Assembly (NCBI GenBank): GCA_033763455.1
Contig: JANRKO010000039.1
Span: 128,001 to 192,000, forward strand
Length of the DNA: 64,000 nt
Reading direction: 5' to 3'
DNA from: Polyangiaceae bacterium
GTDB taxonomy: Bacteria > Myxococcota_A > Polyangia > Polyangiales > Polyangiaceae
The stretch's first letter is position 1; every line of letters begins with the position of its first letter. Position numbers and translations under genes: made by a program. Shown piece by piece: positions 1 through 39,524 of this stretch. The notes beneath the pieces were generated by a model, which was given only the letters and a program-made list of their open reading frames with translations, was not told the DNA's origin and made no database searches.

Positions 1-207
1 GCCTGGTCCGGCTCCCGTGGCGGCACTGCTCCCGCCCGCACCTGGCGTTCCCATCCCGGCGCCGCCGGTGGCTCCCGCCATGGGATTATTAGGCGTCTGG
101 CTATTCGGCCTGCCGCGCTCCGCACCACCCTCAGCGCACCCGACTACGAAGGCTATTGTCGCGATGGCCGTGACCGGCAGCATTCCCCGTGGGTTCTTCC
201 TTTTCAT
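1..207 (-). CDS. Lipoprotein, 5' part only (runs off the window edge), with Gly-rich linker
   Basis: ATG at 207 preceded by AAGGAG; reads MKRKNPRGMLPVTAIATIAFVVGC (lipobox) then a G/A/T-rich linker; not in the ORF track because it is truncated. Confidence 0.7.
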   Translation of the reverse strand, partial: MKRKNPRGMLPVTAIATIAFVVGCAEGGAERGRPNSQTPNNPMAGATGGAGMGTPGAGGSSAATGAGPG

Positions 208-673
208 AGCTCTCCTTCGCTCACAGCTCATTACGGAGCTCAGTCTGATCAACGGCACGCGCAGGCTCCTAGTGGCAATGGTCGTCGGCACGCCGACAAC
301 TCATCTAGGTAAACGAATTGTTCGCGATCAGACTCAAATACACCAGGAGAATTTCCACTAATTTCAAGCAGCTTTGCGCCAACGGTATCAAGCAGTGACC
401 CGCACATATCCGACATCGTCGACGCGTTCGCGCTCCACCCGGGATTGATAATTACAAGCGGCACTTTCGAGAGCGGTACATATTGCCCACATCGCTCTGG
501 TGTCTAAGAGCTTTACGGTCCAATCCCGCTATTAATTGTCCAGCCACACGATGCGTGTCCGGACATATTTGCGTCAGATCAGGCCAACACGGTAAGGTAT
601 CGGCAGAGCCGTTCCGGGTGGTCGCGACGCTCGGGCCGCGGGTGGTGCTGGCTACGTGCCACTCGCCCTGCCC

Positions 674-1906
674 CTACGCCGAAAGCCGAGGCAGCCGATG
701 CGCCGAACCCCAGCGCCTAACAAAGAGCGCCAGGCAACACACAACACCCGCCACCACACTCCATAAATCCATATGGTCGTGCTCAATCAACCACCCCGAA
801 AGCGGAGCTGCCGTAATGCTCGCCACCGACGCCAAACTTTGGCTGAGCCCAAGCACAACGCCTTGCTCGTGTTTTTCCGCGGCACGCGATAACAGGCTCG
901 TGAGATTCGGCCGCAACATGGCATTGCCAGCCGCGATGAGCGCAGTGGCAACCACAAGATAAAATACGGGCTCGATCCGCGGCAGCATTAGAAAGCCGCC
1001 GCCTAGAAGCACCAGGCCTACGGCGACTAACGGCGCCTCCCCAAAACGACGCACCAACCTGCCTAAGAGCCCCCCCTGAATGACAATACCAACGGCACCC
1101 GCTAAGCCATACAACCACCCGATTTGTTCGGCGCCAAAGGCATGCCCCTGCCACGTGTAGCGCCGCTCGGCAAAGAGAGCGAATCCGCTCATGAACATCG
1201 AAAACACGAACAAATAGAGAAAGAACTCCAGGAGAATTCCGCCGATAACCGGGCGCGCAAAGTAGCGACACCAAAGCGCCCAATCGAACGCAGAAGCACG
1301 CCTCCCGGTGGGCAATCCGCTTGGATCCAGCGTGTGCGCGGGAACGCCCTTGGGCAAGATCGTTGCCGTACAGAGAATGCTCGTGGCCGAAAGCGACGCC
1401 GCCGCCAAAAATGGAGCCGCGTAGCTAATGTGGGAAAGCGACGCGGCGATGGTGGGGCCCAACATGAACCCAACACCAAATGCAATACCAATAATAGCGA
1501 ACGATTTGGCGCGGTTCTCCGGCGCTGTATTATCGGCAATATAGGCTTGAGCGACACTCAGATTGCCGGCGGTGAACCCGTCGATGAGCCTGCCCAAAAA
1601 CACCCACCAGAGCGAATTGGCTCCGGCGATGATCAGAAAGCCCATCAACGTGCCGCACTGGCTGAGAAGTAGCACCGGGCGCCGCCCCCACTTATCCGAC
1701 AAGCCACCCAAGATGGGTCCAGCAATCAGCTGACAGAACGCATACGTCGGCACCAAGAGCGACGCCACGAACGCAGAGGCTCCGAACTTTTCTGCGTAGA
1801 GGGGCAGCAAGGGCAACACGATCGTGAGCCCAAGCACATCCACCAACACGATCAGAAAGATCGGATAGAGCGGCTTGGAACTAGCGGGGGATGTGGATTC
1901 CGCCAT
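674..1906 (-). CDS. MFS drug:H+ antiporter, TetA/DHA1-like
   Basis: 410 aa, about 12 hydrophobic segments, MFS motif A GGLSDKWGRRP, GRLIDG, AYIAD. Confidence 0.9.
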   Translation of the reverse strand: MAESTSPASSKPLYPIFLIVLVDVLGLTIVLPLLPLYAEKFGASAFVASLLVPTYAFCQLIAGPILGGLSDKWGRRPVLLLSQCGTLMGFLIIAGANSLWWVFLGRLIDGFTAGNLSVAQAYIADNTAPENRAKSFAIIGIAFGVGFMLGPTIAASLSHISYAAPFLAAASLSATSILCTATILPKGVPAHTLDPSGLPTGRRASAFDWALWCRYFARPVIGGILLEFFLYLFVFSMFMSGFALFAERRYTWQGHAFGAEQIGWLYGLAGAVGIVIQGGLLGRLVRRFGEAPLVAVGLVLLGGGFLMLPRIEPVFYLVVATALIAAGNAMLRPNLTSLLSRAAEKHEQGVVLGLSQSLASVASITAAPLSGWLIEHDHMDLWSVVAGVVCCLALFVRRWGSAHRLPRLSA

Positions 1907-2119
1907 AGCGGGTTCGTCTCATCCCCCGATGCGGGGCCGTTGGCAACTTGGGGTACGGGAACAGTCGAAAGCTCGGCTCCCTATGATGGCGGGCTCACGC
2001 GCGCTGCACTGCCCTGTCAGGGGTTGCGCTCCCCTCCGGGGAGACGTTTAGAGACTACGGACCAGGATTACCCCGGCTGGCGACTCGACGAGGCGGCACT
2101 TGCCCTTGCAGGGTGTCAC

Positions 2120-2347
2120 GGTGACCAATACGAACAGCTCGACCCTCGCCTGACGCGACAGATTGACAAAGCGCTAGGGCGCATTCAGTCCCAGTCTGAG
2201 ATGGGAAAACCGCTACGGGGCGAACTGCACGGCATCTGGTCAGAACGCGTTTCGTTATTTCGCATTCTTTACAAGATCAATCGCTCCACCATTGAAGTTC
2301 TAATTTTGGTTATCGAACATCGAAAGCTTGTTTACGGAGGGCATTAA
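2120..2347 (+). pseudogene. RelE/ParE-family toxin, N-terminus apparently missing
   Basis: GKPLRGELHGIWSERVSLFRILYKI...VIEHRKLVY is a typical RelE C-terminal half; no convincing start or N-terminal strand upstream; start approximate. Confidence 0.6.
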
Positions 2348-2351
2348 ACCC

Positions 2352-2552
2352 ATGCGACACACTATTCTTTCTATTAGCAAAGCAAAAACGCATCTGCTCG
2401 AGCTCGCTCGCCAAGTGGACGAAGAGGGTCGCGCCTACGTCGTTACCAAAGACGGAGCCCCACTCTGTGCGTTGGTGCCTATGGAGGCCTACGAGGCCAT
2501 GCTTGAGGCGTCCTTAGTCGCACGAGATGGCCGCCCCCTCATTTGTTTGTAG
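2352..2552 (+). CDS. Phd/YefM-family antitoxin (possibly C-terminally altered)
   Basis: LSISKAKTHLLELARQV...YVVTKDGAPLCALVPMEAYEAM is the Phd pattern; lies directly after the RelE-like ORF. Confidence 0.75.
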   Translation: MRHTILSISKAKTHLLELARQVDEEGRAYVVTKDGAPLCALVPMEAYEAMLEASLVARDGRPLICL

Positions 2553-2649
2553 GCCAGTGAAGGGTGTAAATGCGCCAGATAGATTCCCGGTGAAGGCCTG
2601 CTCAATCGAATTTGGCCCTTCTGCACTTGAGCACTGATTCCGACGCACT

Positions 2650-2890
2650 TGAGCGGTAGGTCGTCGACAGCGGAGCCTCGCGATGGGTGCACGCGACATC
2701 CGCCGCACAGCACGCCGTCTCGAGAACGCTAAGCTCGCCATGCGTGCTCCATGGAACATGTGCGTTGTGATCCGCTACGTGGCCTCGAAAAAGGCGTTGT
2801 CCGGCAGTTGGCTTCCTGCCGATGGATCCGTGAAAAACACAACGTCGGTGTCGTCGGCACGACGGGCGTAAGCAAGAGCTACCTTTGGCT
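2650..2890 (+). mobile_element. istB: IS21-family IstB helper ATPase fragment (frameshifted relic)
   Basis: RRTARRLENAKL, then in another frame MEHVRCDPLRGLEKGVVRQLASCRWIREKHNVGVVGTTGVSKSYL (degenerate Walker A); truncated on both sides; boundaries approximate. Confidence 0.75.
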
Positions 2891-3110
2891 GCCCTCACCG
2901 ATTGCGCTTGTCGCGCTGGGAGGAACTCGCCCTAGCACGCATAGCTTGATGCAACCATTCGTAGGCCCTTACCGAGCTGTTACTGCCGGACCAGGGGCCT
3001 ATCACTTGCCAATCTCGCAGGCTGCGCGCAAACGCAACGTTCCACCTTTGGGTTGACCTCACTCCAGGTGCGAAACTGAATTCCGCCCGCCCCCCAAACC
3101 CGGAGGTTCT

Positions 3111-3824
3111 TCATTGAATGGGGCTGAACACGTACCCGAAGTGACAGAACGTGCAGCTGAAGGCTCCGTCTTTAGGAGCTGTCTTGAAGAAGGGTGCCGC
3201 TTCGCTAAACGCGCCGCCCGTTTGGTCATTAAACAGCTTCTTATCGCCAACGCCGTAGTACGCCCACGCCGCCGCGTCACCGTCGACTTTCAAATTGGCA
3301 GCTACTCCAATCATTGCGCCTTGCGCGTCGTACATTTCCTTCACCACCATGCTGCCGGTCGTGTGGGGCTTTTCCACTTTGTTCATCACCAGTGCGCCAT
3401 TTCCGGCCGCAGATGATGCTTGGAGCGTATCATTGAAATACACGCGAACCTTGCCGTGGGGCGACGCGGAGTTAGGCAGTGCATCGCGAGGTGCGGCCCC
3501 CTCGCTCTTCCACGGCGCCGCCTTGTGCGTACCCGCAGCGAGAAACGCCTTGATGGCATCCACGGTTGCTTGCGGCGCCGAGCCCGTCGGGGTGTTGCCG
3601 CCTCCGCCGCTACCAGTACTCGCCCCACCCGTAGCTTTGCTCCCACCGGTGGTGCTGGCAGCCCCGCCCGTAGCCTTGTTGCCACCGACGGCCGTACTCG
3701 AACCGCCTGTACCCGTTTGCGTGCCTCCCCCGCTAACGCTGTCGTCCGATGCGCAGCCGACCGCAAACAAAGAGATAGAAGCACCTAGAAGCAAAGACCA
3801 ACGGAGGTTCAACATGGTGCGCAC
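3111..3824 (-). CDS. Lipoprotein with a C-terminal single-heme domain, cytochrome P460-like
   Basis: Lipobox AVGC, Gly/Thr linker, VRVYFN...GSMVVKEMY...WAYY...CTFCH near the C-terminus. Confidence 0.6.
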   Translation of the reverse strand: MRTMLNLRWSLLLGASISLFAVGCASDDSVSGGGTQTGTGGSSTAVGGNKATGGAASTTGGSKATGGASTGSGGGGNTPTGSAPQATVDAIKAFLAAGTHKAAPWKSEGAAPRDALPNSASPHGKVRVYFNDTLQASSAAGNGALVMNKVEKPHTTGSMVVKEMYDAQGAMIGVAANLKVDGDAAAWAYYGVGDKKLFNDQTGGAFSEAAPFFKTAPKDGAFSCTFCHFGYVFSPIQ

Positions 3825-4022
3825 TTTATGCCCGGAGGCCGGAGCGAGCCAACAAAAACGTATCTTGTGCGTGGGTCCCCCGCTCCCGGCCTCCAGGCCT
3901 GCAAGAGCACTGGCCGCAAACAGCCTCCGTAATCTGGCCGAATCGAACGATGCTGAGCACCCAGGGGCATGCTGCCCGTCAACAACGCACAGACATGCGA
4001 TTCACGTCGAACATCCCCGACC

Positions 4023-4085
4023 GACACCCGTTCCAAACATTCCCGAAACATAAGGGAGGCGAGAGTTCCGACACATTCCCGAAAC
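4023..4085 (+). promoter_or_regulatory. Phased direct-repeat boxes GACAC-N6-CAAAC-N6-GAAAC (4023-4049) and GACAC-N6-GAAAC (4070-4085)
   Basis: 11-bp periodic pentamers just upstream of the guanidine operon; the same box recurs at the other nitrogen loci. Confidence 0.6.
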
Positions 4086-4101
4086 CGGAGGTCTCGTCAT
4101 T

Positions 4102-5190
4102 ATGTTCAGTCGCCGAAGCTGGCTATCCGCCGTATGCGCTCTACCCCTCGCTCTCATTGGCTGCCAGAAGAGTGAAGCACCCGCTCCCCAGGTAACGCCC
4201 GAAGCCGCCAAAGCAGAGGCCGCGGTGAGTCCGGCGAAAGCTGAAGCGAAACCGGAAGCGCCGGCCCCGACGAAGGGCAAGCCGCTCGCTATTGCTTACA
4301 GCGACTGGCCCGGTTGGGTGGCCTGGGAAATTGGGATCCAAAAAGGCTGGTTCAAAGAAGCTGGCGTTGAGGTGGATTTTAAGTGGTTTGAATACGTACC
4401 TTCTATGGAGGCCTTCTCCGCCGGAAAAGTCGATGCCGTGACGATGACTAATGGCGACGCTTTGGTGACAGGTTCAAGCGGTGCGCCAAGTGTTGCGATT
4501 CTGATCAACGATTACAGTAACGGCAACGATATGGTGGTGGCCAAGCCCGGCATCAACAAACCAGCTGATTTGAAGGGAAAAAAGGTTGGCGTTGAAGTCG
4601 GATTTGTAAGCCACCTTTTGCTCCTCAACGCGCTCAAAGCGGGCGGCCTCACCGAAAAGGACATCAAGATCGTCAATGTTCCCACGGATCAAACTCCGCA
4701 AACCCTAAAGTCCGGTTCGGTGGATGCGATCGTTGCGTGGCAGCCGAACAGCGGTGCCGCTCTCAAAGAGGTGCCCTCCGCCAAGGCTGTGTTCACAAGT
4801 GCCAACGTGCCCGGCCTCATTTACGACGTGCTCAGTGTTTCCCCCAAGAGCCTCACCGAACGACGTGAAGATTGGAAGAAGGTGGTCGGGGTATGGATGC
4901 GCATTGCAGATTTCGTGACCGATCCGAAAAATGCCGACGAAGCCGCCAAGATTATGAGCGCTCGGGTGGGCCTCAAGCCTGAAGAATACAAGCCCCTAAT
5001 GAAGGGCACATTCTTCTTGAACCTTGCAGGCAATCAGAAGCACTTCGCCAAAGGCGATACGCTCGAATCCATCTATAATTCCACTGAGGTGGTTAACAAA
5101 TTCCAAGTGGAAAACAAGGTCTACAAGCAAGCCGCTGTGATCGAACCGTACCTCGATCGCTCCCTCGTGGATGAACTCGCAAAGAAGTGA
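4102..5190 (+). CDS. ABC transporter substrate-binding lipoprotein, NitT/TauT family, probably guanidine
   Basis: Lipobox [22 protein letters not shown]; first gene of an operon ending in a guanidine hydrolase. Confidence 0.85.
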
Positions 5191-5225
5191 ACCAGAGCGC
5201 GCTGAATCCTGAAACCTAAGAGTAG

Positions 5226-6362
5226 ATGAGAGTGGCACGAACCGGGCTGTTTGCCGTCCGCAAGGAACTCCCCACACGGGCGCGTTTGGTCCTGGTAACG
5301 CTCGCGTTCGTGTTGCCGCTCGCCGTATGGAGCTTCGTTAGCTACGTGCCTTGGGTTTGGCACCCGCTGGTGTTGGTAGAGCATGCCGGCGACTCCAAGG
5401 TGGCAGGAACCTATGACTACTTGGAGGCGGGCCAACTCGTCGAAAAAGAGGCGTTCGTCGGCCGCAACCAAGAGCTTGCAAGGGCGGGCAAAAAGCTCGC
5501 ACAGGGCTCGCCGGCAAACCCCATCTACTTGCCCGCCCCGCACGAGGTTGCCCGCGCGTTCTATACCGCCTTCACAACGGAACCCGAGCGTACAGGCGAC
5601 AAGTGGCTCCATGAGAGCCTTTGGCACAGCTGCAAGATCATCTTCGCGGGTTTCTTCTATGCGGCAATCTTGGGCGTTCCTCTCGGCATTCTGTGTGGGA
5701 CCTTTGGCTTTTTCGCCAAGTTATTCGAGCCCTTCGTGGATTTTGTGCGCTACATGCCAGCGCCGGTATTCGGAGCGCTGGCAGTGGCCGTAGTGGGCCT
5801 TGAAGACGAACCCAAGATCGCGATTATCTTCATCGGTACGTTCTTTCAAATGGTGTTGGTGGTTTCAAACACGACGCGCCAGCTGGATATTGCGCTGTTG
5901 GAAGCCGCGCAAACACTGGGCGCCAAAAACCGACAGCTTTTGATGCGGGTGGTGGTGCCGGGGATCTTGCCTCGCCTGTATCAAGATATGCGGATCTTGA
6001 TCGGATGGGCATGGACGTATCTGGTAGTTGCTGAGCTCATTGGTGAAAAATCCGGCATTAGCGCATTCCTTTATCAGCAACAGCGCTACCGCCACTTCGA
6101 CAACGTCTACGCGTCCATCATCATGATTGGCCTTATTGGCCTTCTCACCGATCAGTTGCTCGCCTTTGTCGGCGGGTTCCTCTTTCCCTGGGAAGGAGAA
6201 GGTCAAGGCCTCTCGCGCTGGATCAAGAATCTGCGCGGGCGTCGTGCTGCTCGCGATTTAGCCAGCCCGAGGACCCAGAGCACAAGCGCTAGCCTTGCAA
6301 CAGTTGTCGGCTCCCAAGCTATTTCGCTCACGGGTTCGACGCACACAAAAGAGTCCCCATGA
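5226..6362 (+). CDS. ABC transporter permease (NitT/TauT family)
   Basis: EAAQTLGA loop, WTYLVVAE, multiple TM segments. Confidence 0.9.
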
Positions 6363-7264
6363 CCCTCGATGCATCCGCTGCCATGAGCACTGACGATCGC
6401 CTCGCCCTGCCCGATTACAGGGACCAATCCCCTGAAGTTGCCGCCTATTTTCGCGAAATCAGGCAACGCCCAGTGGTCATGAGCGTGGAGCAGCTCTCGC
6501 GCCACTTCGAGAGCAGCCGTGGCACTATCACCGCCCTTTCAGATATCAACTACGACGTCCGCAAACGTGAGTTCATCTCCGTCATTGGGCCCTCGGGCTG
6601 CGGCAAATCCACGCTCATTCGTATCCTTGCGGGGTTGGATTACCCTTCCGAAGGCACCGTGCTTCTGGATGGCAAGCCCGTGCATGCTCCCGGAGCGGAC
6701 CGCGGCATGGTGTTCCAGGGCTACACGCTTTTCCCCTGGCTCACGGTCCGTAAGAACGTGGCCTTTGGTTTGCGCATGAAGGGCATGAAAGGTAGCGAAG
6801 TGGAAAAGCAGGTAGATCACTGGCTAGAGGTGGTTGGCCTCACTCGCTTTGAACGCCATTATCCGCATCAGCTCTCTGGCGGTATGAAGCAACGCGTTGC
6901 CATCGCGCGAGCACTCGCCAATGGGCCCCGCATCTTGCTGATGGATGAACCTTTTGGCGCCCTGGATGCCCAAACCCGCGCCAGCATGCAGGCTCATCTG
7001 CTTCAGATCTGGCAGGACGTTGACGTTACTATCCTGTTCATTACGCACGATTTGGACGAGGCCGTTTACCTCTCCGATCGCATCGTGGTGCTCGGCGCCC
7101 ACCCTGGCCACATCCGCGAGATCATCGAGGTGAATGTGCCGCGGCCGCGCTCGCCATCGCAGTTCCTTACTGGGCATTTCCTCGCCACAAAAAAGCGACT
7201 AGAGGAGCTCATCCACCCCGCCCGCCCTGCCCACGCTCCCAACCACGAAGACCTCGAGAACTGA
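6359..7264 (+). CDS. ABC transporter ATP-binding protein (NitT/TauT family)
   Basis: [32 protein letters not shown] overlap with the permease. Confidence 0.95.
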
Positions 7265-7265
7265 T

Positions 7266-8423
7266 ATGTCTTTCTACCTGCGCCACGCACCGGGCCGAAG
7301 AAACCACAACCGCACGCTACCGGACGTCACCCAGTTCAACGGCTACAAAGCTCAAGATTCGGAAGCTCTCTTACCCACGACGGAGTGGGAGTCCGAGTGC
7401 CGGCGCGGCCAGGAGCTCGGCCTCATGCCAGCCGACTCAATTGAAGACAAGCGCGAGATCAGCTGCTTCCAACGGGGAGAGCTGCCGCACTGGTCGGGCA
7501 TCAATACGTTTCTCAAGGCTCCCTACGTCGAAGATGTGCGCAAGGTCGGCGAGTACGATGTCGCGATTCTTGGGGCGCCTTTTGACGTGGGCACCACCTA
7601 CCGCTCTGGCACCCGCTTTGGACCCCAGGGCATTCGCCGCATCTCTTCCCTTTACACGCCGTACAGCTTTGAGATGGGCATCGACCTCAGGGAAAGCCTC
7701 AAGATCTGCGATTTAGGGGACATCTATTGCCCCGCCAACATCACCAAATCACACGATCAGATCAGCAAAGGTGTGGCCCATGTGCTTTCGCACGGCACGT
7801 TGCCCATCATCTTAGGTGGGGATCACTCCATCGGTTACCCAACGGCCCGCGGCATCGCTCAATGCATCGAAGGCAATGTGGGCATTATTCATCTCGATCG
7901 CCATGTCGATACTCAAGAGAAAGACATGGACGAGATCATGCACACCTGCCCGTGGTTCCACGCCACCAACATTCCCAATTGCCCTCCTCAGAACTTAGTG
8001 CAGCTCGGCATCGGCGGCTGGCAGTGCCCCCGCCCCGGCGTAAAACACGGCCGCTCCATGCGCACCACCATCCTCACGGTGGACGACATCGAAAGCATCG
8101 GCATCGAGAAGACCCTCGAAATCGCGCTAGAAACAGCCTGGAAGGGCGCAAGCGCGGTGTTCCTGTCGCTGGATATCGACTGCGTGGATGCGGGCTTCGT
8201 GCCGGGCACTGGGTGGCCGGAGCCGGGTGGGTTTTTGCCACGCGAGGTTCTCGCTCTTTTGCGGGGCGTTGCCAAAGAAGGCATCGCTGGCATGGAAGTG
8301 GTCGAAGTGGCGCCCCCTTATGACATCTCGGATATCACTTCGCTCTTGGCCGTTCGTGCCATCTGCGATGTGCTCGGAGCCATGGTGCAAAACGATCGCA
8401 TCGGTGGTCGTCTCAAGGCTTGA
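7266..8423 (+). CDS. gdmH: Guanidine hydrolase (arginase/ureohydrolase family)
   Basis: GGDHS, DRHVD, DIDCVD plus RGELPH..GINTFLKAPY, MHTCPWFHATN, GIGGWQ, GTGWPEPGG, closely matching recalled cyanobacterial GdmH (Sll1077). Confidence 0.85.
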   Translation: MSFYLRHAPGRRNHNRTLPDVTQFNGYKAQDSEALLPTTEWESECRRGQELGLMPADSIEDKREISCFQRGELPHWSGINTFLKAPYVEDVRKVGEYDVAILGAPFDVGTTYRSGTRFGPQGIRRISSLYTPYSFEMGIDLRESLKICDLGDIYCPANITKSHDQISKGVAHVLSHGTLPIILGGDHSIGYPTARGIAQCIEGNVGIIHLDRHVDTQEKDMDEIMHTCPWFHATNIPNCPPQNLVQLGIGGWQCPRPGVKHGRSMRTTILTVDDIESIGIEKTLEIALETAWKGASAVFLSLDIDCVDAGFVPGTGWPEPGGFLPREVLALLRGVAKEGIAGMEVVEVAPPYDISDITSLLAVRAICDVLGAMVQNDRIGGRLKA

Positions 8424-10306
8424 GCCACTCAGTCGAAGTGTTCGAGGAACACACGGGAGAGCCAAGTGCCACGGGCCCAGCATTTCTATTGCTGGGCGAC
8501 CTGGGTGCAGCCGCGCCTGAGCTTGAGGTCGTCCGGGAGCGGACGGCCAAAGTGCTTGGCTTTGCCCCCGCGCTCGTGACTGGATATTTGCCGACGCGCT
8601 CCGAGGCACGAGCTGGCTTTGGGGCATGGGAGGCCGATCCACTAAAGAACCCCGTGATTTTAGCGTTGTCGAAGTTGGCAACGGCGGGGCACTCCGAAGT
8701 TTACATTTTGCCGGTGCGCCCGGATCTCGGTATTACCGAAAAACAGATCATCACCGAAGCAGTCCGTGAAACGCAGCGTACGTTTCCGAACGTGCGGGTG
8801 CGTTACGACTCGGTGGAGCCCTGCCACCCGCTCTTGCTTTCGGCCTACTTGGAAAGCGCCGCGCTAGCACTACACCGGCTAACGCCTTCGGGCCCAGGGC
8901 AGCTCGGGGTCCTTTTGGTATCGAGCGGTGAAGACGACGCCGTGCCACGCGCACACGCCTACCAACTCATGCGCCTGCTTTGGGAACAGCTCGGCGTTGC
9001 CAAGGGGGAAGTGGCTTTCCTTCGCCACAACAGAACCCCAGTGCCCGAACAGCTTGATGCCTGTTTGGCAACGGGCCTCTCGTGGGTGGTGGTGCCACAA
9101 TTTCTATTTCCTACCGAGCACTTTGAGTTTCTGCAAACCATCTACACGGATTTCGTTCGCCGTCACGAAATTGAAAACGATTGGGCGCTCTCAGAGCCCA
9201 TCGCACAACACCCGGCGTTCACGGCCTGGCTGGAGCAACGCCTCGTACGGATCTGGCAGGAAAATCGGGACAAGACGGACGCGCGCCAACCCACCGCGAA
9301 ACCTCGCAGCCCGGAGGCAAGCCTCCTACACAGGCCCGATGGAGCGATCGCCATGCGACCCGACACCAAGATGGAGTCCGGTTATCCCGGTGCCTGGCTC
9401 GCTGAGATTCGCGACCCCTCCGCGCTCACCCAGCTGACACGTGGCGCCGGAATCGAAGGAGAACGCATCTTCGTTAAGGTGACCTGGCACGGTTACGCAC
9501 AGGGCACGTACACCGATCCGGTAGCTCTCGAAACCTTACTAAAAGCACTTCCTGGCCGCGCCGTTATTCTGGAGGGACACACCTCCAGTCGCAATCAAGG
9601 TGGCGCCGAATGGGACTGGGAAAACGAAAGCCGCGCCCATCGCGCCTGGATCGTAGAACAAGATCGTGAATACCTTGAACGCACTGGGATCTTAGAAGTC
9701 TTAGAGCGCTACGGTGCCACCTATCTCAACCTCACGGAAACCTGGTGGGATGGTGCGTGCGCACCTGCCGCCGAAGTGCACGCGCTTTTGAAGGCTCAAG
9801 GCGTGGAGCTAAAGTTTTCAGAGCTCGCCGAGTTTGTCCCTCGGGTTTTCCTGGAAAACCGAGGCGCGCCCTTCATTAGCTATGCGCGTTTCAAAGGCCC
9901 CACCCGGCTCTCGCTAGCGAACCTCTTTGGCCTCTTACCGCCGCCGTTACGAACGGCGTGGCACGGCCCTAACATTACCTATTTTGCGCAGGTTTGCTGC
10001 GATCTTGCCAAGCTTTACGGTGCCCTGTTCACTACGTACGGCCTCGTGGAGTCGCTCAACGTCGCTGTGCGTTGGGATAGAAAAGGGCTCTACCGCAGCC
10101 GTTGGGGCAATTACGACCTCGTGCCACGGCCTGGGCTCGTCACTCTAGCCGCAGGTTTTGCGGGCGCCGATGTATTGGGCAGCCGCTTGCAAGGGCAAGA
10201 CGTACGGAAGAGTGCGTTCTTCGACGTCGTGCGCCAAGAGCTTGGCTACAACGCCGACCTTGAAACTCTGCCGGTCAATGCAGATCTGGTGCGTCGATTT
10301 GTATAG
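8420..10306 (+). CDS. Fusion of tandem CbiX-like chelatase-fold domains and a DUF362-like domain
   Basis: RLLWEQLG..EVAFL...VVVPQFLF..EPIAQHP (CbiX-like); IFVKVTW...YTDP..LETLL..VILEG and K..TRLSLANLFGLLP (DUF362-like); TTGA overlap with gdmH. Confidence 0.65.
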   Translation: MSHSVEVFEEHTGEPSATGPAFLLLGDLGAAAPELEVVRERTAKVLGFAPALVTGYLPTRSEARAGFGAWEADPLKNPVILALSKLATAGHSEVYILPVRPDLGITEKQIITEAVRETQRTFPNVRVRYDSVEPCHPLLLSAYLESAALALHRLTPSGPGQLGVLLVSSGEDDAVPRAHAYQLMRLLWEQLGVAKGEVAFLRHNRTPVPEQLDACLATGLSWVVVPQFLFPTEHFEFLQTIYTDFVRRHEIENDWALSEPIAQHPAFTAWLEQRLVRIWQENRDKTDARQPTAKPRSPEASLLHRPDGAIAMRPDTKMESGYPGAWLAEIRDPSALTQLTRGAGIEGERIFVKVTWHGYAQGTYTDPVALETLLKALPGRAVILEGHTSSRNQGGAEWDWENESRAHRAWIVEQDREYLERTGILEVLERYGATYLNLTETWWDGACAPAAEVHALLKAQGVELKFSELAEFVPRVFLENRGAPFISYARFKGPTRLSLANLFGLLPPPLRTAWHGPNITYFAQVCCDLAKLYGALFTTYGLVESLNVAVRWDRKGLYRSRWGNYDLVPRPGLVTLAAGFAGADVLGSRLQGQDVRKSAFFDVVRQELGYNADLETLPVNADLVRRFV

Positions 10307-10384
10307 CGGGATTGTGAAGGCCCACCTGATCCGGTAATGCTTTGCCGTTCAGGCAACAGTTCAACCCCAATAGGAGATGCCCGC

Positions 10385-10954
10385 ATGATGCATTCAGTAT
10401 CCACCCGCCGTGTGTTCGCCGCCGTGGCGGCCCTTTCCGTATTGCTCGCCGCTCCGCTTGCTAGCGCACTCGACGCATTCCTTCAGATCGAGGGCGCGGA
10501 GATGAAAGGGGATTCTAAAGACAAAGACTTCAGGGATGCGATCGAAATCGATAGCTTCTCATTTGGCGTTCAGAACACCGGTGCGAGCTCGCCCGGAGCC
10601 GGGAGAGGGCGAAGCGCTCCCAACTTTACCGAGCTTAGCGTCCAAAAGAGCGCGGACTCTGCCAGCACGTATCTTTTCATGGCAGCCGCCAACGGCACGC
10701 TACTCAAGAGTGTGACTCTCTCGCTCAAAAAAAGCGGCGGTGATAAAGGTGGCGTCTTCTACAAAGTCACCCTCAAAGACGCCCAGGTAGCCAGCGTACA
10801 AACCTCAGCAGCCCCCAAAGGCGATGCCGTGCCCACTGAAAGCGTAACCTTTTCGTTCGCGAGCATCATCATCGAATACACCGCCGCTGATCCCAAAGGC
10901 GGACCTGGAAAGAAACATACGTTCAGCTGGGATACGAAAAACGTCAGGCAATAA
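10385..10954 (+). CDS. hcp: Hcp1-family tube-like protein with N-terminal signal peptide
   Basis: DAFLQIEG..KGDSKD...IEIDSFSFGV, DSAS..LF, PTESVTFSF..I..EY, FSWD; preceded by RR + hydrophobic stretch + ASA; AGGAG RBS. Confidence 0.85.
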   Translation: MMHSVSTRRVFAAVAALSVLLAAPLASALDAFLQIEGAEMKGDSKDKDFRDAIEIDSFSFGVQNTGASSPGAGRGRSAPNFTELSVQKSADSASTYLFMAAANGTLLKSVTLSLKKSGGDKGGVFYKVTLKDAQVASVQTSAAPKGDAVPTESVTFSFASIIIEYTAADPKGGPGKKHTFSWDTKNVRQ

Positions 10955-10978
10955 GCTCGAACCGGGGACGCACTGGCC

Positions 10979-11000
10979 GGCCCATGCCTTGACATGGGCC
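10979..11000 (+). terminator. Stem-loop after hcp
   Basis: GGCCCATG-N6-CATGGGCC; no U-tract. Confidence 0.35.
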
Positions 11001-11025
11001 AAGCCGGGCATCAGCTACTTCATGA

Positions 11026-11544
11026 GTGCCCGATTCATTTCTGCAAATTCCGTTGCGAACGCTCGAAGGCGAGCCGTATTCATTGGCTGAGCATGCTGGA
11101 GATGTGTTGTTGATCGTGAATGTTGCGAGCGCCTGCGGATTCACACCGCAATACGCAGGGCTTGAGGCGCTGTATCGTAAGCACAAAGATCAGGGGTTCA
11201 CGGTGCTTGGGTTCCCGTGCAACCAATTCGGCAAGCAAGAGCCTGGGGACCCGGAAGCGATCCGAACATTCTGCAACAACCGCTTCCAGATTACTTTCCC
11301 AATCTTGGAGAAAGTGGACGTCAATGGGTCGAATGCACACCCGCTTTACAAGGCCCTGAAGCGTGCTGCGCCGGGCCTACTCGGGACGGAAGCCATCAAG
11401 TGGAATTTCACCAAGTTCTTAGTCGACCGAAGCGGGAAAATTGTGAAGCGCTTTGGTCCGGCGGACACGCCAGATAAGCTTGAACGGCCAATTGCTGAGC
11501 TTCTCGAGAAACCTTTTGCCTCCAACACGGTCAGTCGGAAGTGA
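11026..11544 (+). CDS. Glutathione peroxidase family protein
   Basis: NVASACGFTPQY, LGFPCNQFGKQEP, IKWNFTKFLVDR. Confidence 0.95.
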   Translation: MPDSFLQIPLRTLEGEPYSLAEHAGDVLLIVNVASACGFTPQYAGLEALYRKHKDQGFTVLGFPCNQFGKQEPGDPEAIRTFCNNRFQITFPILEKVDVNGSNAHPLYKALKRAAPGLLGTEAIKWNFTKFLVDRSGKIVKRFGPADTPDKLERPIAELLEKPFASNTVSRK

Positions 11545-11638
11545 GGTCATAACAATTACCTTAGGCTGGTGCACGGGCGCCCTGCCGCAAACCCAAGCCG
11601 ACATGAAAAACAACTAGAACTCAGCTAGGGTGCTGGGG

Positions 11639-12139
11639 ATGCTTCGAAAAATGACTGGGTTTGAGCGGGATAGCGAGGGCGATTGGGTGGTGGAGCTTGG
11701 CTGCGCCCATCGCCAACATGTCCGACACAAGCCACCCTTTCAAAACCACGCCTGGGTCACTTCTGACGAGGGCCGAACCTCGCGCCTCGGCCAGGAGCTG
11801 AATTGCCCTCTCTGCGATCGACTAGAGCCACCTCACGGCCTCGAAGTCTACAAGCGGACTCCGGAGTGTACGACTGAAACGATCCCGCAGGGCCTGCTCC
11901 GAGACCACACGCTCAAATCAGGTGTCTGGGGTCGAATCCACGTGCTTGAGGGTCAGATCGAGTACACGATTCCATCCTTGGGAGGAAAGATGCATCAATC
12001 TCTTTTGCAACCGGGCAACGTGGGTATCGTCGCGCCAGAGGTTCCGCATCACATTGCGCCCATTGGCCCAGTCAGGCTCTTCATCGAATTTCTCCAACGG
12101 CCACCAACGGCACCATCGGAACTCCTGAGCAAACAATGA
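11639..12139 (+). CDS. DUF3565 plus DUF1971 (TehB-like cupin) fusion
   Basis: DWVVELGCAHRQHVRHKPP...LNCPLC then YKRTP...HTLKSGVWGRIHVLEG...PHHI. Confidence 0.75.
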   Translation: MLRKMTGFERDSEGDWVVELGCAHRQHVRHKPPFQNHAWVTSDEGRTSRLGQELNCPLCDRLEPPHGLEVYKRTPECTTETIPQGLLRDHTLKSGVWGRIHVLEGQIEYTIPSLGGKMHQSLLQPGNVGIVAPEVPHHIAPIGPVRLFIEFLQRPPTAPSELLSKQ

Positions 12140-13044
12140 CCTCACCACCCGGGACAGCACTCGTTACCGGAGCCACAGGCTTCATTGGAAGAGCCCTTGT
12201 CCCCGCCCTTTTGGCACACGGTTGGGACGTTGCCGCGGGGAGTCGGCACACCAAACACGCCAGTCCGACACAAGGCGTACACTGGTTAACGTTTGACTTG
12301 CTGCAGCCTGAGTCCTTCGATACAGCGTTTGAAGGCGTAAAAGTCGCTTATTATTTGGTCCACAGCATGGGGGACCACCAAGCTGATTTTCGCACTCGAG
12401 AGCTACGTGCCGCGCGAGCTTTTGCACAGGCCGCAGAACGCGCGGGGGTCGAGCGCATCGTGTACTTGGGCGGCCCGGCTCCGCCCGTTGGGGCCTCCGA
12501 ACACTTGCGTAGCCGATCAGAAGTCGGAGAGGTTTTGCGTGCGGGCAAGGTGCCAACCGTGGAGCTCAGGGCGTCGATGGTCATTGGTCACGGTAGTGCG
12601 TCGTGGCAAATCGTGCGGGACTTGGCCCTGCGCTTGCCGGTGATGGTGCTACCGAAATGGCTGAGCTCTCGCACGCGACCGATCGCTCTTGACGACGTGG
12701 TGGCCGCTTTGGTCGCCGCAGCAGAGGTGCCCATCGAAAGGAACGAGTGGTTCGATGTTCCTGGGCCCGAAACCATGGACGGGCAGCAAATTCTGGAACG
12801 CATCGCGGCCCTCGGTGGCCGCCATTTTATAGCCCTCAAGGTGCCATTCCTAACGCCACGCCTATCGTCCCTTTGGCTTCGGTTGGTTACGCGGACCGAT
12901 TACGCTGTAGCACGCGAGTTGGTCATGGGATTAACGAGTGATTTGCTGCCTCACGATGAGCGTTTTTGGAGCCTCATCGGCCACACCGAGCTCGTCTCAT
13001 TCGACGAAGCAGCACGACGCGCTCTGGCAGCCGAGCGGGCGTGA
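12136..13044 (+). CDS. NAD(P)-binding atypical SDR / epimerase, YbjT-like
   Basis: TGATGFIG, YYLVHSM, SEHLRSR.EV, LRASMVIGHGSAS. Confidence 0.85.
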   Translation: MTSPPGTALVTGATGFIGRALVPALLAHGWDVAAGSRHTKHASPTQGVHWLTFDLLQPESFDTAFEGVKVAYYLVHSMGDHQADFRTRELRAARAFAQAAERAGVERIVYLGGPAPPVGASEHLRSRSEVGEVLRAGKVPTVELRASMVIGHGSASWQIVRDLALRLPVMVLPKWLSSRTRPIALDDVVAALVAAAEVPIERNEWFDVPGPETMDGQQILERIAALGGRHFIALKVPFLTPRLSSLWLRLVTRTDYAVARELVMGLTSDLLPHDERFWSLIGHTELVSFDEAARRALAAERA

Positions 13045-13179
13045 AACGCGAACTCTCGGGCTTCCCGGCATTTGGCGCTGTTTTTCGGTACGAGAGGTAC
13101 TTCGCATGACAAGTAACTTGGCCTTCAAGCGGGCGCACACTTGCGTTTGCGGGCTGTTTCGACAACCGTGCAAGTCACT

Positions 13180-15744
13180 ATGGGAATTGGCGGTTTCTCA
13201 CGGAGATTGGGCGGTAAGAGTTGGCTTAGGCTAGGCCTTTGGGGGCTTGTGGCGAGCTTTTCCATAGGAGCCTGTGGCAATTCGGACGAAGAAGAGATCC
13301 AGAAGGCGAAGCTCTCTGAAGGCTGCCTCATTAATAGCGACTGCCGAGCGCCGTTAGCCTGCGCCTTTCGCCGCTGTCACACGGCGTGTGAAACCACCCG
13401 AGATTGTGTCGCTCCGCAACTATGCGTGGCGAGCGACAAGCCATTTTCTGTGTGTCAGCTCGAAGACGAGCGTCAGTGCACGTACCATAGTGAGTGTGCT
13501 GGCTCACAGCTCTGCGGCGTTGACGGAAACTGCCGCGACCAGTGTGCCACTTCACGGGATTGTCTGCGGGATCAGGTATGTACGCAAGGAACCTGCGCTG
13601 AGCCTAGCGAACTTCTGAATGGCAGCTTACCGCCGAGTCCGGCGGCTACAGCCGTTGGAGGCCAGGTGTGTACCTACAACTCGGAATGCCCAGGAGATTT
13701 GGTATGTCGCGCAGGTGTGTGCGGCAAAGAGTGCCTTGACACCAAAGATTGCGCGCCGGGTTACCGCTGTAACGCGCAGAATCGTTGCGAAAGTCCCTTA
13801 CAGGGAAGCGCGGGCGCGGGCAACTTGGCGTCGGGTGGCAGCGCCGGCAGCGGTGGCGGCGGCATGAGTGGAGGCAACCAGAACGCAGGCGGAAGCCCGC
13901 TCACTTCCGATGGTGCCGGAGGTATGAGTGCGGCCACTGGAGGTAGCACTGCCACTGGAGGCAGCGGAGGTGCGGGCCCAGAAGTGTGCCCAGGCGCTGG
14001 CTGGACACGCCCCTGCCAAGCGTGTGCCGACGGCCCTGTCGGTGTCCAAGCCTGTGAACAAAACCAAGCTGGCTTTGCTTGGGGCGCGTGCATCGGCGGC
14101 CAGGCTAGCGAAGCCTGTGATGGGAAGGACAACGACTGCGATGGCACACCGGACAACGGAGTGGGCTTCGAGTGCATCCTCGGGCAGACAGCGCAGTGTA
14201 GCCCAGGCGGCAACTGCGCGAGCATTCAGGGGAGCAAGAGCTGCATCGTCGTCGGCAATCTCTGTAAGTACGGTGCTTGCGCCGCGGGCCTAGAAATCTG
14301 TAACGGTGAGGACGACGACTGCAACGGCACTAAAGACGACGGCGCAGGCATGACGTGCATCCTCGGCTCTTCCCCGAGTGCTTGCACGATTTCTAAAAAC
14401 AACTGTAGCCAACCCGGCATTCCCTCCTGCGATGCGGCTTGCCACCTAAAATGCGCACCCGCCGCCGAGATTTGCGACGGGATTGACAATGATTGCGAAG
14501 GCACCATCGATGTTGTTCCGAACGGTATTCAGTGCAAAAAAGACAGCACCGAGCCGTGCATGGTTCAAGCGTGCAACATGACGCTCACAGGCTCACGCAC
14601 GTGCTCAAGTGGCTGCGCCTGGGGCTCTTGCGTGGTGGCGGATGCCTGCAACGATCTGGATGATTCTTGTGACGGCAGAATCGACGAGGGTTACAAGTAC
14701 GTCGCTGGTGTTTCGGGCGTACTGCTGGCTGGAACGTATAACAACACCGGAGTAGCTAGCGTTCTGGATGGCAACACGGTGTGGGTCGGCTGGACCGACG
14801 CAGCGCTGGGGTCCGACAAGCTTCGAGTCGGCAAGTTTGACGTGGCCACGGGCAGCCCCCAGTCGCTGATTGCGGACGCAGGAGTGGGGTTAAGCTTTGG
14901 GAACTACAATCCCGCCTCGGGCGTCAAGATCGGCAACGACGTTTGGTTTGCCGTGATGGGAGCTAACACCACACAGATTTGGGTAGCGCGCGCTAGCGGT
15001 GGCTCACCGGGCGTGGCTCCGGTGCTCACCACTTGGCAGATCGCCGGTCTGCCGGCTTCCGGCGGCTACTACCGGCTCGGGGCTCTCGCTTCAGACGGCA
15101 CGGATCTCTACATCACATACAGGCTAGCTACGGGTCCGCTCCGCGCAGCGCGAATTTCGACATCCACTCTCTTGGTAACCTGGGACCGCGAACTCACGCC
15201 CTCCGAGCCAGCCCCTGCGGCACTCGCGTTCGAGGGGAGCAGCTTGCACGCCATTTGGTGCGATACCGCCCAGGCCAAGTTGCGCCACGCTCGCTTGTCT
15301 ACAAGTGACGGCGTCCCCACGGTGGCGTCTCATATCGTGGTGAACAGCGAATGCACGGCGCCGGGTAAACGCGAAGCATTCGTGGAATACACAAATGGAG
15401 CACTCTTGACCGTGGCTCGATCCGCGACCTTTACCGCTCAAGTCGCCACACTGTCGTTAACTGGGGTAACGCAATCCACCCAAAGCTTCGCCGTGCCCGG
15501 GCAAAATGCTCTGTACTTTGCGCTCCGCGTTGGCAATACCTCAGCCTTCGCGGTAGGGAGCGAAGCGGGGGTTCGTCGCTACTCACAACAAGGAGTTCTC
15601 GCCAGCTCGGCCACCGAAGGCCCCTCCTTGAGCACCTATTCCGCCAATGGCAGCCTACTTTATCCAGCGGGTGGGCCGGTGAGCATCGGAGTGAATCCGA
15701 CGAATCCAGCGCAAATTGTGATGACCCGACTGCAATGTCCGTGA
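13180..15744 (+). CDS. Large Cys-rich surface lipoprotein with E.CDG.DNDC.G (MopE-like putative metal-binding) repeats and a beta-rich C-terminal domain
   Basis: Lipobox IGAC; Cys repeats; four CDG/CND-DNDC-type repeats; Gly linker; start uncertain (13141 or 13180). Confidence 0.75.
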   Translation: MGIGGFSRRLGGKSWLRLGLWGLVASFSIGACGNSDEEEIQKAKLSEGCLINSDCRAPLACAFRRCHTACETTRDCVAPQLCVASDKPFSVCQLEDERQCTYHSECAGSQLCGVDGNCRDQCATSRDCLRDQVCTQGTCAEPSELLNGSLPPSPAATAVGGQVCTYNSECPGDLVCRAGVCGKECLDTKDCAPGYRCNAQNRCESPLQGSAGAGNLASGGSAGSGGGGMSGGNQNAGGSPLTSDGAGGMSAATGGSTATGGSGGAGPEVCPGAGWTRPCQACADGPVGVQACEQNQAGFAWGACIGGQASEACDGKDNDCDGTPDNGVGFECILGQTAQCSPGGNCASIQGSKSCIVVGNLCKYGACAAGLEICNGEDDDCNGTKDDGAGMTCILGSSPSACTISKNNCSQPGIPSCDAACHLKCAPAAEICDGIDNDCEGTIDVVPNGIQCKKDSTEPCMVQACNMTLTGSRTCSSGCAWGSCVVADACNDLDDSCDGRIDEGYKYVAGVSGVLLAGTYNNTGVASVLDGNTVWVGWTDAALGSDKLRVGKFDVATGSPQSLIADAGVGLSFGNYNPASGVKIGNDVWFAVMGANTTQIWVARASGGSPGVAPVLTTWQIAGLPASGGYYRLGALASDGTDLYITYRLATGPLRAARISTSTLLVTWDRELTPSEPAPAALAFEGSSLHAIWCDTAQAKLRHARLSTSDGVPTVASHIVVNSECTAPGKREAFVEYTNGALLTVARSATFTAQVATLSLTGVTQSTQSFAVPGQNALYFALRVGNTSAFAVGSEAGVRRYSQQGVLASSATEGPSLSTYSANGSLLYPAGGPVSIGVNPTNPAQIVMTRLQCP

Positions 15745-15771
15745 ATCGAGCCTTGCGGGGAGGCCCGGGCC

Positions 15772-17124
15772 CTAAGTCGTTAACCCCGGCACGCCCGTTG
15801 TAGCAAGCGCTACATCGCTCCCAAAAGATGTAACCGGGGAGCCCATGATGTTTGCGATGGATAGCAACACTTGGCTCATGTTGCTGCCCGGGTGCCGCAG
15901 GTGTTGATTGCCGGTCAGCTTGCCGCCCGCTTTGCCGATGAGCATGACTGGGAAATCGGTCATCTGGTGTGTCTTACCCCACGCGGTGTCCGTGCTTGAG
16001 TAGATGAGGCTGTAGTCTAGCAAGTTACCCCCTCCCACGCTGATGCCCTGCATCTTCACGAGCATTTCTGCCAGAGATTCCATCGTAAAAAGCACGCCTT
16101 TGTGGACGCGTGTCTGAATATCTGGGCCGGTGTGTCCGCCAGGATCTTCGTGGCAAATCGTGTCGTGGTAGTCGGCGTTCATGTCAGCGCCAAGGCCTCG
16201 GAAATACACGTGCGCCGCCGGCAACATGAACACATAGCTGCCCACGTTCGTGAGCCCGCAGGAAAGTGCAAGAATCATGAGATCCGTCATCGCGGTATTC
16301 ACGGCTGGGGTGGCCTCCTCGTTCTCATCTGCGTCAACGGTTGGGCGCGTTGGGGAGCCGCAAGCGAGCTGTACAGGAGCCACGAGGCGGGACTCAATGG
16401 CACGGATCCCCTCAAGGTGGCTCTCGAGCCTTTGTTGATCTGCCATGCCGAGCCGCCCACGCAAGGCCGCGCCATCGGCGAGCACGGAATCCAACACACT
16501 CCGCTTAACGCCTAGCAATGGAGAGGCTTGCGGTGTGCTCGTGCCCCCCGGCGCCATTTGCGAAAATAGCCTATCAAACACCACCTTTGGGGCGTATTCG
16601 GGGCGCAAGGGAGCTCCGGGGCCGCGGTGAGAAACCGCGTGCAAGGTGATGGCGCCATCTTCATTCGGCGTAGCTGCTGTAACGCCAACTTCGAGCGAAC
16701 GAAACGGCATCCCCGCGGAGGTGATGTCTGCCACCACCTGATCGATCGACGGACCTCCGGGCGTGGTTGTACCTGGAAGAAAGCCACCCACCGTCGCAGC
16801 AGCGGCGCCGCCCCAATGCGTACCAGCATCCACCAAGCTGCCATACCCTGACACCACGGTGAGATATTCCTTCACATGCGCGAGCGGCATCAACTCAGGG
16901 CTAAGCTGCCAATTGGACCCAGTCGCTTCGGGAATAAACATTCCCGGCAAGACACCGTTACCGAAGAACCACGTCAGATAGCGCACCGGTATCGCCGCAC
17001 CCTGTGCGAACGCTGTGCCATTCCCGTTTAACATGATATCGAGCGTGGGTAATGGCACGGCTACGGCTCCACCCGTGGCGAGCAGGCCCTTCAAAACGTG
17101 GCGTCGGCTCAGAGTATTTTTCAT
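15772..17124 (-). CDS. DUF1552 domain protein with Tat-like signal
   Basis: SRRHVLKG, FFGNGV, SIDQVVA, FDRLF, SVLDSV, LG..D..RLE.HL..IR.IE. Confidence 0.85.
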   Translation of the reverse strand: MKNTLSRRHVLKGLLATGGAVAVPLPTLDIMLNGNGTAFAQGAAIPVRYLTWFFGNGVLPGMFIPEATGSNWQLSPELMPLAHVKEYLTVVSGYGSLVDAGTHWGGAAAATVGGFLPGTTTPGGPSIDQVVADITSAGMPFRSLEVGVTAATPNEDGAITLHAVSHRGPGAPLRPEYAPKVVFDRLFSQMAPGGTSTPQASPLLGVKRSVLDSVLADGAALRGRLGMADQQRLESHLEGIRAIESRLVAPVQLACGSPTRPTVDADENEEATPAVNTAMTDLMILALSCGLTNVGSYVFMLPAAHVYFRGLGADMNADYHDTICHEDPGGHTGPDIQTRVHKGVLFTMESLAEMLVKMQGISVGGGNLLDYSLIYSSTDTAWGKTHQMTDFPVMLIGKAGGKLTGNQHLRHPGSNMSQVLLSIANIMGSPVTSFGSDVALATTGVPGLTT

Positions 17125-18908: not shown

Positions 18909-18953
18909 AACGGTTTCAGGTCCAGGTAAGAGGGCGAGATTTCCCTCTTTGGC

Positions 18954-18986
18954 TGGTTAGTCGCCGACGGCGTACGATCGGCTACG
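18954..18986 (-). promoter_or_regulatory. Putative ECF sigma promoter, copy 1 (CGTAGCCGAT-N11-GGCGACTAACCA)
   Basis: Lies 46 nt upstream of the DUF1592 gene; identical half-sites and spacing at 20260 and 22744. Confidence 0.7.
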
Positions 18987-19026
18987 CGCGAAACCGAAAA
19001 AACAATCGAGCACGGGATTTGGGCGC

Positions 19027-37177: not shown

Positions 37178-37195
37178 AGAAGCGAAAGATACGCC

Positions 37196-37498: not shown

Positions 37499-37506
37499 GG
37501 CACGCT

Positions 37507-39518: not shown

Positions 39519-39524
39519 GGCACC

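Follow-up and report, generated by a model that had tools for sequence, protein, structure and literature searches.

Guanidine hydrolase (GdmH) is a recently discovered nickel enzyme through which guanidine can serve cyanobacteria as a nitrogen source and complete ammonia oxidisers (comammox bacteria) as a growth substrate. After heterologous expression, the activity of GdmH is strongly tied to its nickel loading. Here we describe a gene that follows gdmH in a 64,000-nucleotide (nt) stretch of a Polyangiaceae genome (contig JANRKO010000039.1, positions 128,001 to 192,000 of the forward strand; hereafter the window) and encodes a 628-amino-acid (aa) fusion of a CbiX-like and a DUF362-like half (8420-10306, + strand). 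Because of their strict adjacency across phyla, the fusion protein and GdmH are functional partners, and the reading that we hold to be the best one, if tentatively, is that the fusion is an accessory (maturation) factor dedicated to GdmH, most likely acting in metal loading or selection.

GdmH homologues require nickel, and the Synechocystis enzyme also depends on the co-encoded GhaA and GhaB (PMC12704784, PMC12186494, in the parts available). The genes of these two HypA2- and HypB-like proteins are neighbours of gdmH and share an operon with a guanidine ATP-binding cassette (ABC) transporter (PMC12704784). For the comammox guanidinase, the accessible text of PMC11410670 reports no nickel chaperones near the gene or in the genomes and calls the nickel-loading route unclear; the heterologously made enzyme was partly loaded with nickel, and its lower Vmax and kcat were tied to incomplete metal loading. 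The fusion is like GhaA and GhaB in its place beside gdmH in a transporter operon, and the nickel-supply role that we propose for it would be the same as theirs. It differs from them in having no sequence or fold relation to either protein, and it has no HypA zinc ribbon, nickel motif or GTPase domain.

The gdmH-fusion operon and its conservation

The operon is a run of five genes on the + strand. It starts with an NMT1/SsuA-like ABC transporter substrate-binding protein (4102-5190; Pfam NMT1, E 3.2e-20), followed by the permease (5226-6362; BPD_transp_1, E 2.2e-22), the ATPase (6359-7264; ABC_tran, E 7.2e-35, and of nitrate/taurine type in NCBIfam), gdmH (7266-8423) and the fusion gene, which is supported by an open reading frame (ORF), the overlap with gdmH, homologues and an AlphaFold2 (AF2) model. 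The sequence-only reading had noted that the fusion gene overlaps the gdmH stop codon, and both the ORF coordinates and the sequence bear this out: the TTG codon at 8420-8422 overlaps the TGA at 8421-8423 (context ...ggcTTGAgcc...), so that the two genes are translationally coupled. The exact start is uncertain, as residues 1-13 have a predicted local distance difference test score (pLDDT) below 50 and do not align with homologues, and an in-frame GTG lies at 8438. Whichever of the two starts is used, the spacing between gdmH and the fusion gene is at most about 15 nt.

By sequence, the upstream gene encodes a bona fide guanidine hydrolase of the arginase family (Pfam Arginase, E 6.3e-76). In phmmer searches the protein matched the Nitrospira inopinata guanidinase (PDB 9fek) with E 1.4e-160 and Synechocystis GdmH (7esr/7oi1) with 3.1e-150, and the next-best match, a guanidinobutyrase, reached merely 1e-47. 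Its GTTYR and GTGWPEPGG segments are identical in alignments to characterised guanidinases, and it is in these segments that the Thr and Trp specificity residues (T97 and W305) sit (PMC11410670, in the text available). In the main clade linked to the fusion, GdmH also carries a conserved basic, His-containing N-terminal peptide with the consensus MxFYKRHAPNHREHxRxLPD (7266-7349 in the window, GdmH residues 1-28), in which H7, R12, H14 and R16 are invariant in 38/38 sequences. The peptide has no aligned counterpart in 9fek or 7esr and is missing from the enzyme of genome G238 (see below); it could serve as a tail for metal binding or docking.

Searches with the fusion protein gave 548 homologues at E <= 0.001 in a word-indexed search, the best 120 of which were 550-650 aa long and 44-75% identical. 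An exhaustive search of 50%-identity representatives gave 1009 matches at E <= 0.001, of which 117 reached E <= 1e-30; ten representatives were full-length (581-638 aa), the rest being mostly fragments and stand-alone proteins similar to one half. The named sources (Polyangiaceae, Haliangium, Kofleriaceae, Myxococcales, Bryobacterales/Bryobacteraceae, Acidobacteriia, Terrimicrobiaceae, Latescibacteria and Rhodothermales) cover at least four phyla and range over Myxococcota, Acidobacteriota, Verrucomicrobiota, Latescibacteria and Rhodothermales; neither Nitrospira nor a cyanobacterium is among these few names, a fact to which we give no weight. The stand-alone proteins include N-half-like forms of 263-302 aa (P0276, P0278 and P0292) and C-half-like forms of 301-310 aa (P0126, P0141, P0158 and P0186). 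As the latter lie on contigs of 228-861 kb, they are unlikely to be contig-end fragments, and split forms of the fusion may occur.

The linkage to gdmH was examined in 83 loci (3 from genomes and 80 from metagenomes) fetched with the fusion as the query, in which the window's proteins were located by tblastn; 66 of them were evaluable, their upstream sequence reaching at least 400 nt beyond the estimated fusion start. The gdmH gene lay directly upstream and on the same strand in 64 of the 66 evaluable loci, and in 69 of all 83. The sequence-only reading had named unlinked homologues as a finding that would refute its proposal, and the linkage proved very tight; the count overstates independence because near-duplicate loci are included (L001/L005/L006, L024/L026, L037/L038 and L074/L075). 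In all but one of the 69 pairs the estimated gap between the two genes lay between -103 and +18 nt; in the exception (L046) a gap of 1987 nt holds an inserted Laminin_G_3 ORF with a weak, sub-threshold Metallophos match. Across the loci, GdmH was 70-94% and the fusion 41-75% identical to the proteins of the window, and a partner that evolves faster than its enzyme is the usual pattern of accessory proteins.

Other neighbours were variable: 27-36 loci had the ABC transporter, 16 an outer-membrane barrel and 14 a signal-peptide-bearing protein of the metallo-beta-lactamase fold. At least nine loci (L008, L019, L020, L025, L027, L034, L038, L081 and L084) have urease structural or accessory genes that abut the gdmH-fusion pair. 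A sample of 401 genomes from the window's phylum contained the full fusion twice (in G000 and G238), both times with an adjacent gdmH, and a third genome (G377) gave an ordinary CbiX-type match only. GdmH itself was found at E <= 1e-80 in three of these genomes (G000, G238 and G112). In G238 the fusion follows a GdmH of the comammox type, which matches 9fek with 654.6 bits (E 6e-196).

The two halves of the fusion protein

The AF2 model of the fusion, built with 95 homologues, has a mean pLDDT of 90.6 and a predicted template modelling score (pTM) of 0.72, and confidence is low only at residues 1-13 and in the linker 292-296. All sequence motifs picked out by the sequence-only reading are present in the translation, namely FLLLGDLG (22-29), LLVSSG (165-170), TWHG (355-358), EGH (385-387), WHGP (514-517) and CC (526-527), and the architecture that it proposed, a CbiX-like domain fused to a DUF362-like one, is real and uncharacterised. 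NCBIfam and a direct sequence search of PDB gave no match to the protein, and the sole Pfam match of the whole fusion was CbiX at residues 176-273, covering the second lobe only (47.3 bits against a cut-off of 22).

The N-half (residues ~20-281; 8477-9262, + strand) has the two-lobed fold of class II chelatases (CbiX/SirB/HemH), in agreement with the two chelatase-like repeats read from the sequence. A profile of 36 homologues matched SirB (5zt7) with E 2.7e-5 at profile positions 65-267. In structural alignments with VIA-align (VIA), residues 16-281 matched HemH/CpfC (9kta) with Z 21.2, and the N-half matched SirB 5zt7 with Z 20.8 (239 residues aligned, root-mean-square deviation 3.0; Foldseek E 5.9e-8), CbiK with Z 18.3 and CbiX (4ccs) with Z 17.8; the second lobe (residues 161-278) matched the nickelochelatase CfbA with Z 12.2. 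Similarity to periplasmic-binding-protein and LacI ligand-binding folds was also seen, at Z ~9.

The same reading had claimed that the chelatase histidines are replaced, which holds for the first lobe and holds in part for the second. In the profile alignment the two histidines of the SirB TAAHAKH motif, the catalytic and metal-binding pair of the active lobe, correspond to fusion positions 106 and 109, where His occurs in 0/95 homologues. In the loop after strand 1, where chelatases carry GHGS, positions 27 and 28 of the homologues are D/E and L/A and never His. In the second lobe, His is retained in a part of the family, at position 171 in 29/95 and at position 234 in 45/95. Conserved instead are an invariant face of helix 174-191 (R177, Y181, R185, W188 and E189) and the near-invariant residues R202 (93/95), H203 (92/95) and H136 (88/95). 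Genes for tetrapyrrole (siroheme, B12 or F430) synthesis were absent from the window neighbours and from the recurrent neighbours of the 83 loci. As His is missing from the SirB catalytic positions and no tetrapyrrole genes lie nearby, the fusion is no ordinary chelatase, and it differs further from SirB, CbiX, CbiK and HemH in being joined to a DUF362 domain. Source annotations of the homologues read hypothetical protein, 'sirohydrochlorin ferrochelatase' or CbiX/SirB domain protein; the missing histidines and the gene context make the chelatase name probably wrong. A related multidomain protein is the uncharacterised DR2241 of Deinococcus radiodurans (PDB 2jh3), in which a chelatase-like module is likewise fused to further domains (Foldseek E 4.2e-7; VIA Z 14.1 over residues 17-286). 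The match is, however, confined to the chelatase part, and the extra domains of DR2241 are not DUF362-like. We know of no link between DR2241 and gdmH.

The C-half (residues ~301-628; 9320-10303, + strand) is a divergent DUF362 domain that resembles the N-terminal domain of LarA. The DUF362 character claimed from the sequence was recovered by the ESM Atlas and by fold searches, though below the threshold of Pfam itself: residues 308-628 scanned alone gave DUF362 (PF04015) 14.6 bits and E 0.036 against a cut-off of 24. In the ESM Atlas, residues 330-628 reached a cosine of 0.95, all 30 of 30 matches being DUF362, with template modelling scores of 0.90/0.88 to a 307-aa archaeal DUF362 cluster. 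With the DUF362 protein encoded in the same genome, the family profile gave a weak hhalign match (E 0.18). Modelled alone (residues ~300-628), the domain has a pLDDT of 90.3 and a pTM of 0.91. Foldseek with this isolated domain returned nothing at E <= 0.001, and in an exhaustive VIA-align comparison with 48,161 chains the top five were all LarA-family nickel-pincer enzymes (5huq with Z 11.0 over 200 residues, 7s91 with 10.7, 9eia with 10.7, 4nar with 10.2 and 9q3j with 9.3), the next chain reaching 5.6. These matches span 195-206 residues, corresponding to LarA residues ~35-270. The C-terminal domain of LarA, which completes the cofactor and active site, is absent, and no additional domain follows before the fusion ends at residue 628. 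Pfam places DUF362 in the same clan, CL0471, as DUF2088, the N-terminal domain of LarA (PMC11770544, in the part available).

The C-domain has ~40-50 invariant positions in the 95 sequences. For comparison we used 14 stand-alone DUF362-like proteins of ~300 aa that match the family profile with E 1e-60 to 1e-31 and are 23-33% identical. Ten residues (K353, E385, N392, E440, K492, N501, H515, D528, E544 and D584) are kept in at least 11 of these 14 relatives, eight of them in 14/14, and H515 is invariant in fusions and stand-alone relatives alike. A second group of residues distinguishes the fusions: H357 (95/95 fusions and 0/14 stand-alone relatives), H387 (95/95 and 6/14), C447 (91/95 and 0/14), C526 (94/95 and 1/14), C527 (94/95 and 0/14), R559 (95/95 and 1/14) and R561 (95/95 and 0/14). 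By these counts the C-domain has gained a family-specific His2Cys3 set (H357, H387, C447, C526 and C527), which, together with an RSR motif, sets it apart from DUF362 and LarA. Position 500 is Lys in 14/14 stand-alone relatives and Ser or Ala in 95/95 fusions. Matching this position and H515 to what we take to be the cofactor-tethering Lys and the nickel-binding His of LarA is a lead only. In the secondary structure of the model, H357, E385/H387, N437/E440, K492 and E544 all follow beta-strands, which would put them at a Rossmann-like ligand-binding place.

Nickel supply and possible roles of the fusion

HypA (PF01155) was found neither in the window's genome (93.7% complete) nor in five further GdmH-bearing genomes (G238, G112 and G401-G403), that is in 0/6, nor in any of the 184 ORFs that flank the pair in the related loci at distances of up to 4 kb; 150 of these ORFs were scanned at E <= 1e-4 and the other 34 at E <= 1e-6, five near-duplicate loci having been dropped beforehand. 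Members of the CobW/HypB/UreG family (PF02492) in the window's genome were the UreG of a urease cluster (41206-41841) and one weak match (24.8 bits), and those in the locus flanks are UreG-like and stand beside urease accessory or structural genes in L008, L025 and L034. The absence of hypA- and hypB-like genes noted from the sequence thus extends to the whole genome for HypA, with the urease-cluster UreG as the only strong GTPase of the family, and the mutual exclusion with hypA/hypB-like genes (ghaA/ghaB) that the sequence-only reading proposed to look for is suggested in one direction, HypA not being found in fusion-bearing loci. The urease cluster itself (ureD-A-B-C-E-F-G by Pfam; 36305-41841, + strand) lies 26 kb downstream of the fusion and takes the urea made by GdmH.

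An accessory role in the metal centre is favoured since the partner of GdmH evolves faster than the enzyme, GdmH needs nickel, and chaperones of the HypA type are lacking. It is favoured also because both folds are nickel-related and because the His/Cys gain is clade-specific, on a scaffold without the conserved Lys: SirB has been solved with nickel, CfbA is a nickelochelatase, and the LarA family consists of nickel-pincer enzymes. We propose that the fusion would be made in step with GdmH from one message and that its C-domain may bind a metal, most likely Ni(II), at a candidate His/Cys site at the C-terminal ends of beta-strands. As a scaffold or for docking, the protein would use its degenerate chelatase-like N-half, and the two halves together would deliver or select nickel for the dinuclear GdmH site where the GhaA/GhaB pair is lacking; UreG might give a GTP-dependent drive where it is adjacent. 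A prediction of the GdmH-fusion complex (fusion residues 15-628) gave no answer (score 0.00) and was counted neither way. A more specific form of this proposal is possible and held with less confidence: the fusion may be a nickel insertase independent of any nucleoside triphosphatase (NTPase), in which a LarA/DUF362-fold domain without the tethering lysine offers a His2Cys3 nickel site and a histidine-less module docks on GdmH, and it may be the nickel-loading system that is still missing for guanidinases outside the cyanobacteria, the comammox type included.

Several observations weigh against the accessory role. Two fusion loci have no gdmH upstream, one with a full-length fusion behind an unknown 310-aa ORF (L047) and the other with a 442-aa form that lacks the first lobe (L070). 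The loci were picked by a fusion query, and the share of gdmH genes followed by a fusion was seen in one phylum sample only. In that sample, the GdmH fragment of G112 lies at a contig start and is followed by an unrelated 129-aa ORF, and neither the fusion nor HypA was found in this genome (95% complete). Pfam and NCBIfam showed no NTPase domain, His-rich tail or known metallochaperone domain in the fusion. Many of the invariant residues of the C-domain are Arg, Lys and aromatics, a set that would suit an enzyme or a small-molecule site better than a chaperone; the core chemistry is not GdmH-specific, as the ten conserved residues are common to stand-alone DUF362-like proteins; and the His2Cys3 grouping is suggested by positions in the sequence and not by distances in three dimensions. 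Finally, a UreG-like GTPase stands directly before gdmH in six loci (L008, L019, L020, L025, L027 and L034), as in L034, where UreG (6162-6824) is followed by gdmH from 6832 in the order urease genes, ureG, gdmH, fusion, and the window holds a full UreDEFG set. The urease machinery could therefore supply nickel in place of the fusion, and UreG might serve both nickel enzymes.

A different role, which we regard as unlikely though the best of the alternatives to an accessory factor, is that of a second pathway enzyme, whose DUF362/LarA-like domain, perhaps with a metal or a nucleotide-derived cofactor, would act before or after GdmH. Examples would be the release of guanidine from a substituted guanidine or the handling of a side product, with the chelatase-like half binding the substrate. 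The very high conservation of the C-domain, with at least 40 positions invariant across the 95 sequences, is what this role would lead one to expect, and so are the ten residues common to the stand-alone relatives, as a catalytic core would show them; the only clear fold relatives of the domain, the LarA racemases, are enzymes. The pathway, however, has no gap, as transporter, GdmH and urease cover the steps from guanidine to ammonia, and the domain is without both the LarA C-terminal domain and the lysine that all stand-alone relatives carry at position 500. LarC (PF01969) is encoded in the window's genome, which would fit an enzyme of this kind, yet it is uninformative, being present in 132/201 genomes of the phylum. 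Given this base rate, the co-occurrence of LarC with GdmH (5/6 GdmH genomes) was dropped as a line of evidence.

Less probable again is that the fusion is a structural or regulatory GdmH subunit that neither catalyses a reaction nor delivers metal; it might make the hexamer more stable, act as a gate to the active-site tunnel or serve as a ligand sensor. Translational coupling and strict adjacency agree with such a subunit, as does the likeness of the N-half to periplasmic-binding-protein and LacI folds. It would also answer a need for regulation: in the literature, cyanobacterial and comammox gdmH operons have a guanidine riboswitch, whereas none was found for operons of the window type. No guanidine riboswitch of any Rfam class was detected at positions 1-20000 of the window (E <= 1) or, at gathering thresholds, in nine related loci (L001, L002, L003, L008, L019, L024, L034, L035 and L042), where matches to 5_ureB_sRNA fall on urease coding sequence; regulation must therefore be by other means. 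Yet characterised GdmH enzymes are active homo-hexamers without a fusion-like subunit (PMC11410670, in the text available), the fusion has no DNA-binding or signalling domain in Pfam or NCBIfam, and its invariant His, Cys and Glu suggest chemistry beyond scaffolding. A role in general metal or cofactor homeostasis, related to Fe-S clusters or tetrapyrroles as for CbiX-long or DR2241, with the gene merely travelling with a guanidine/urea island, is very improbable: DR2241 is among the Foldseek matches and the three conserved Cys of the C-domain could hold a cluster, but gdmH is the sole near-universal neighbour while all others vary, and in the genomes of the phylum the fusion is seldom found and goes together with GdmH.

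Surrounding genes and meaning of the linkage

On the same strand as the fusion gene and 30 nt beyond its end lies the gene for an orphan Hcp, the tube protein of type VI secretion (10337-10954; Pfam E 2.9e-31). It is not kept in related loci, and L001 has an opposite-strand CBS-domain gene at that place. Upstream of the operon, a small ORF (1940-2347) encodes a ParE/YoeB-type toxin domain (Pfam E 5.8e-5). Further downstream, a DUF3565 + DUF1971 fusion protein (11630-12139) lies between a glutathione peroxidase (11026-11544) and an NmrA-like NAD-binding protein (12136-13044), followed by an 867-aa protein with putative copper-binding motifs of the MopE type (13141-15744) and by a pair of genes on the - strand (15772-18908) with DUF1552 (HXXSHH) and DUF1592-DUF1588-DUF1595 domains, typical of Planctomycete-style cytochrome-like proteins. 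The urease genes open an island for nitrogen compounds (36305-51837), in which ureDABCEFG is followed by a urea-type, branched-chain-like ABC transporter (42113-47973, - strand), an allophanate hydrolase (48194-49924, - strand), isochorismatase-family hydrolases (49981-50736, + strand, and 51130-51837, - strand) and a ChrR-type cupin (50768-51133, - strand). The isochorismatase pair beside the allophanate hydrolase presumably resembles biuret/triuret hydrolase systems.

Full-text literature searches, judged on the abstracts of the papers found, gave no description of the fusion family or of its link to gdmH, and the same kind of source gave no functional account of DUF362. Thirteen of the 15 supplementary files of PMC11410670 were searched and hold no mention of CbiX, chelatase, sirohydrochlorin, DUF362, agmatinase or downstream. 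As the fusion follows gdmH in nearly every soil or sediment lineage examined, the comammox-type enzyme included, it is an immediate candidate for co-expression with GdmH. If it is a maturation factor, it would define a system for nickel maturation that has no relation to HypAB, UreDEFG or CooCJT and provide the first functional assignment for a domain of the DUF362 family, and it would make fully active guanidinases easier to produce for biotechnology. If it is not, its strict linkage to gdmH still marks an unrecognised component of guanidine catabolism.

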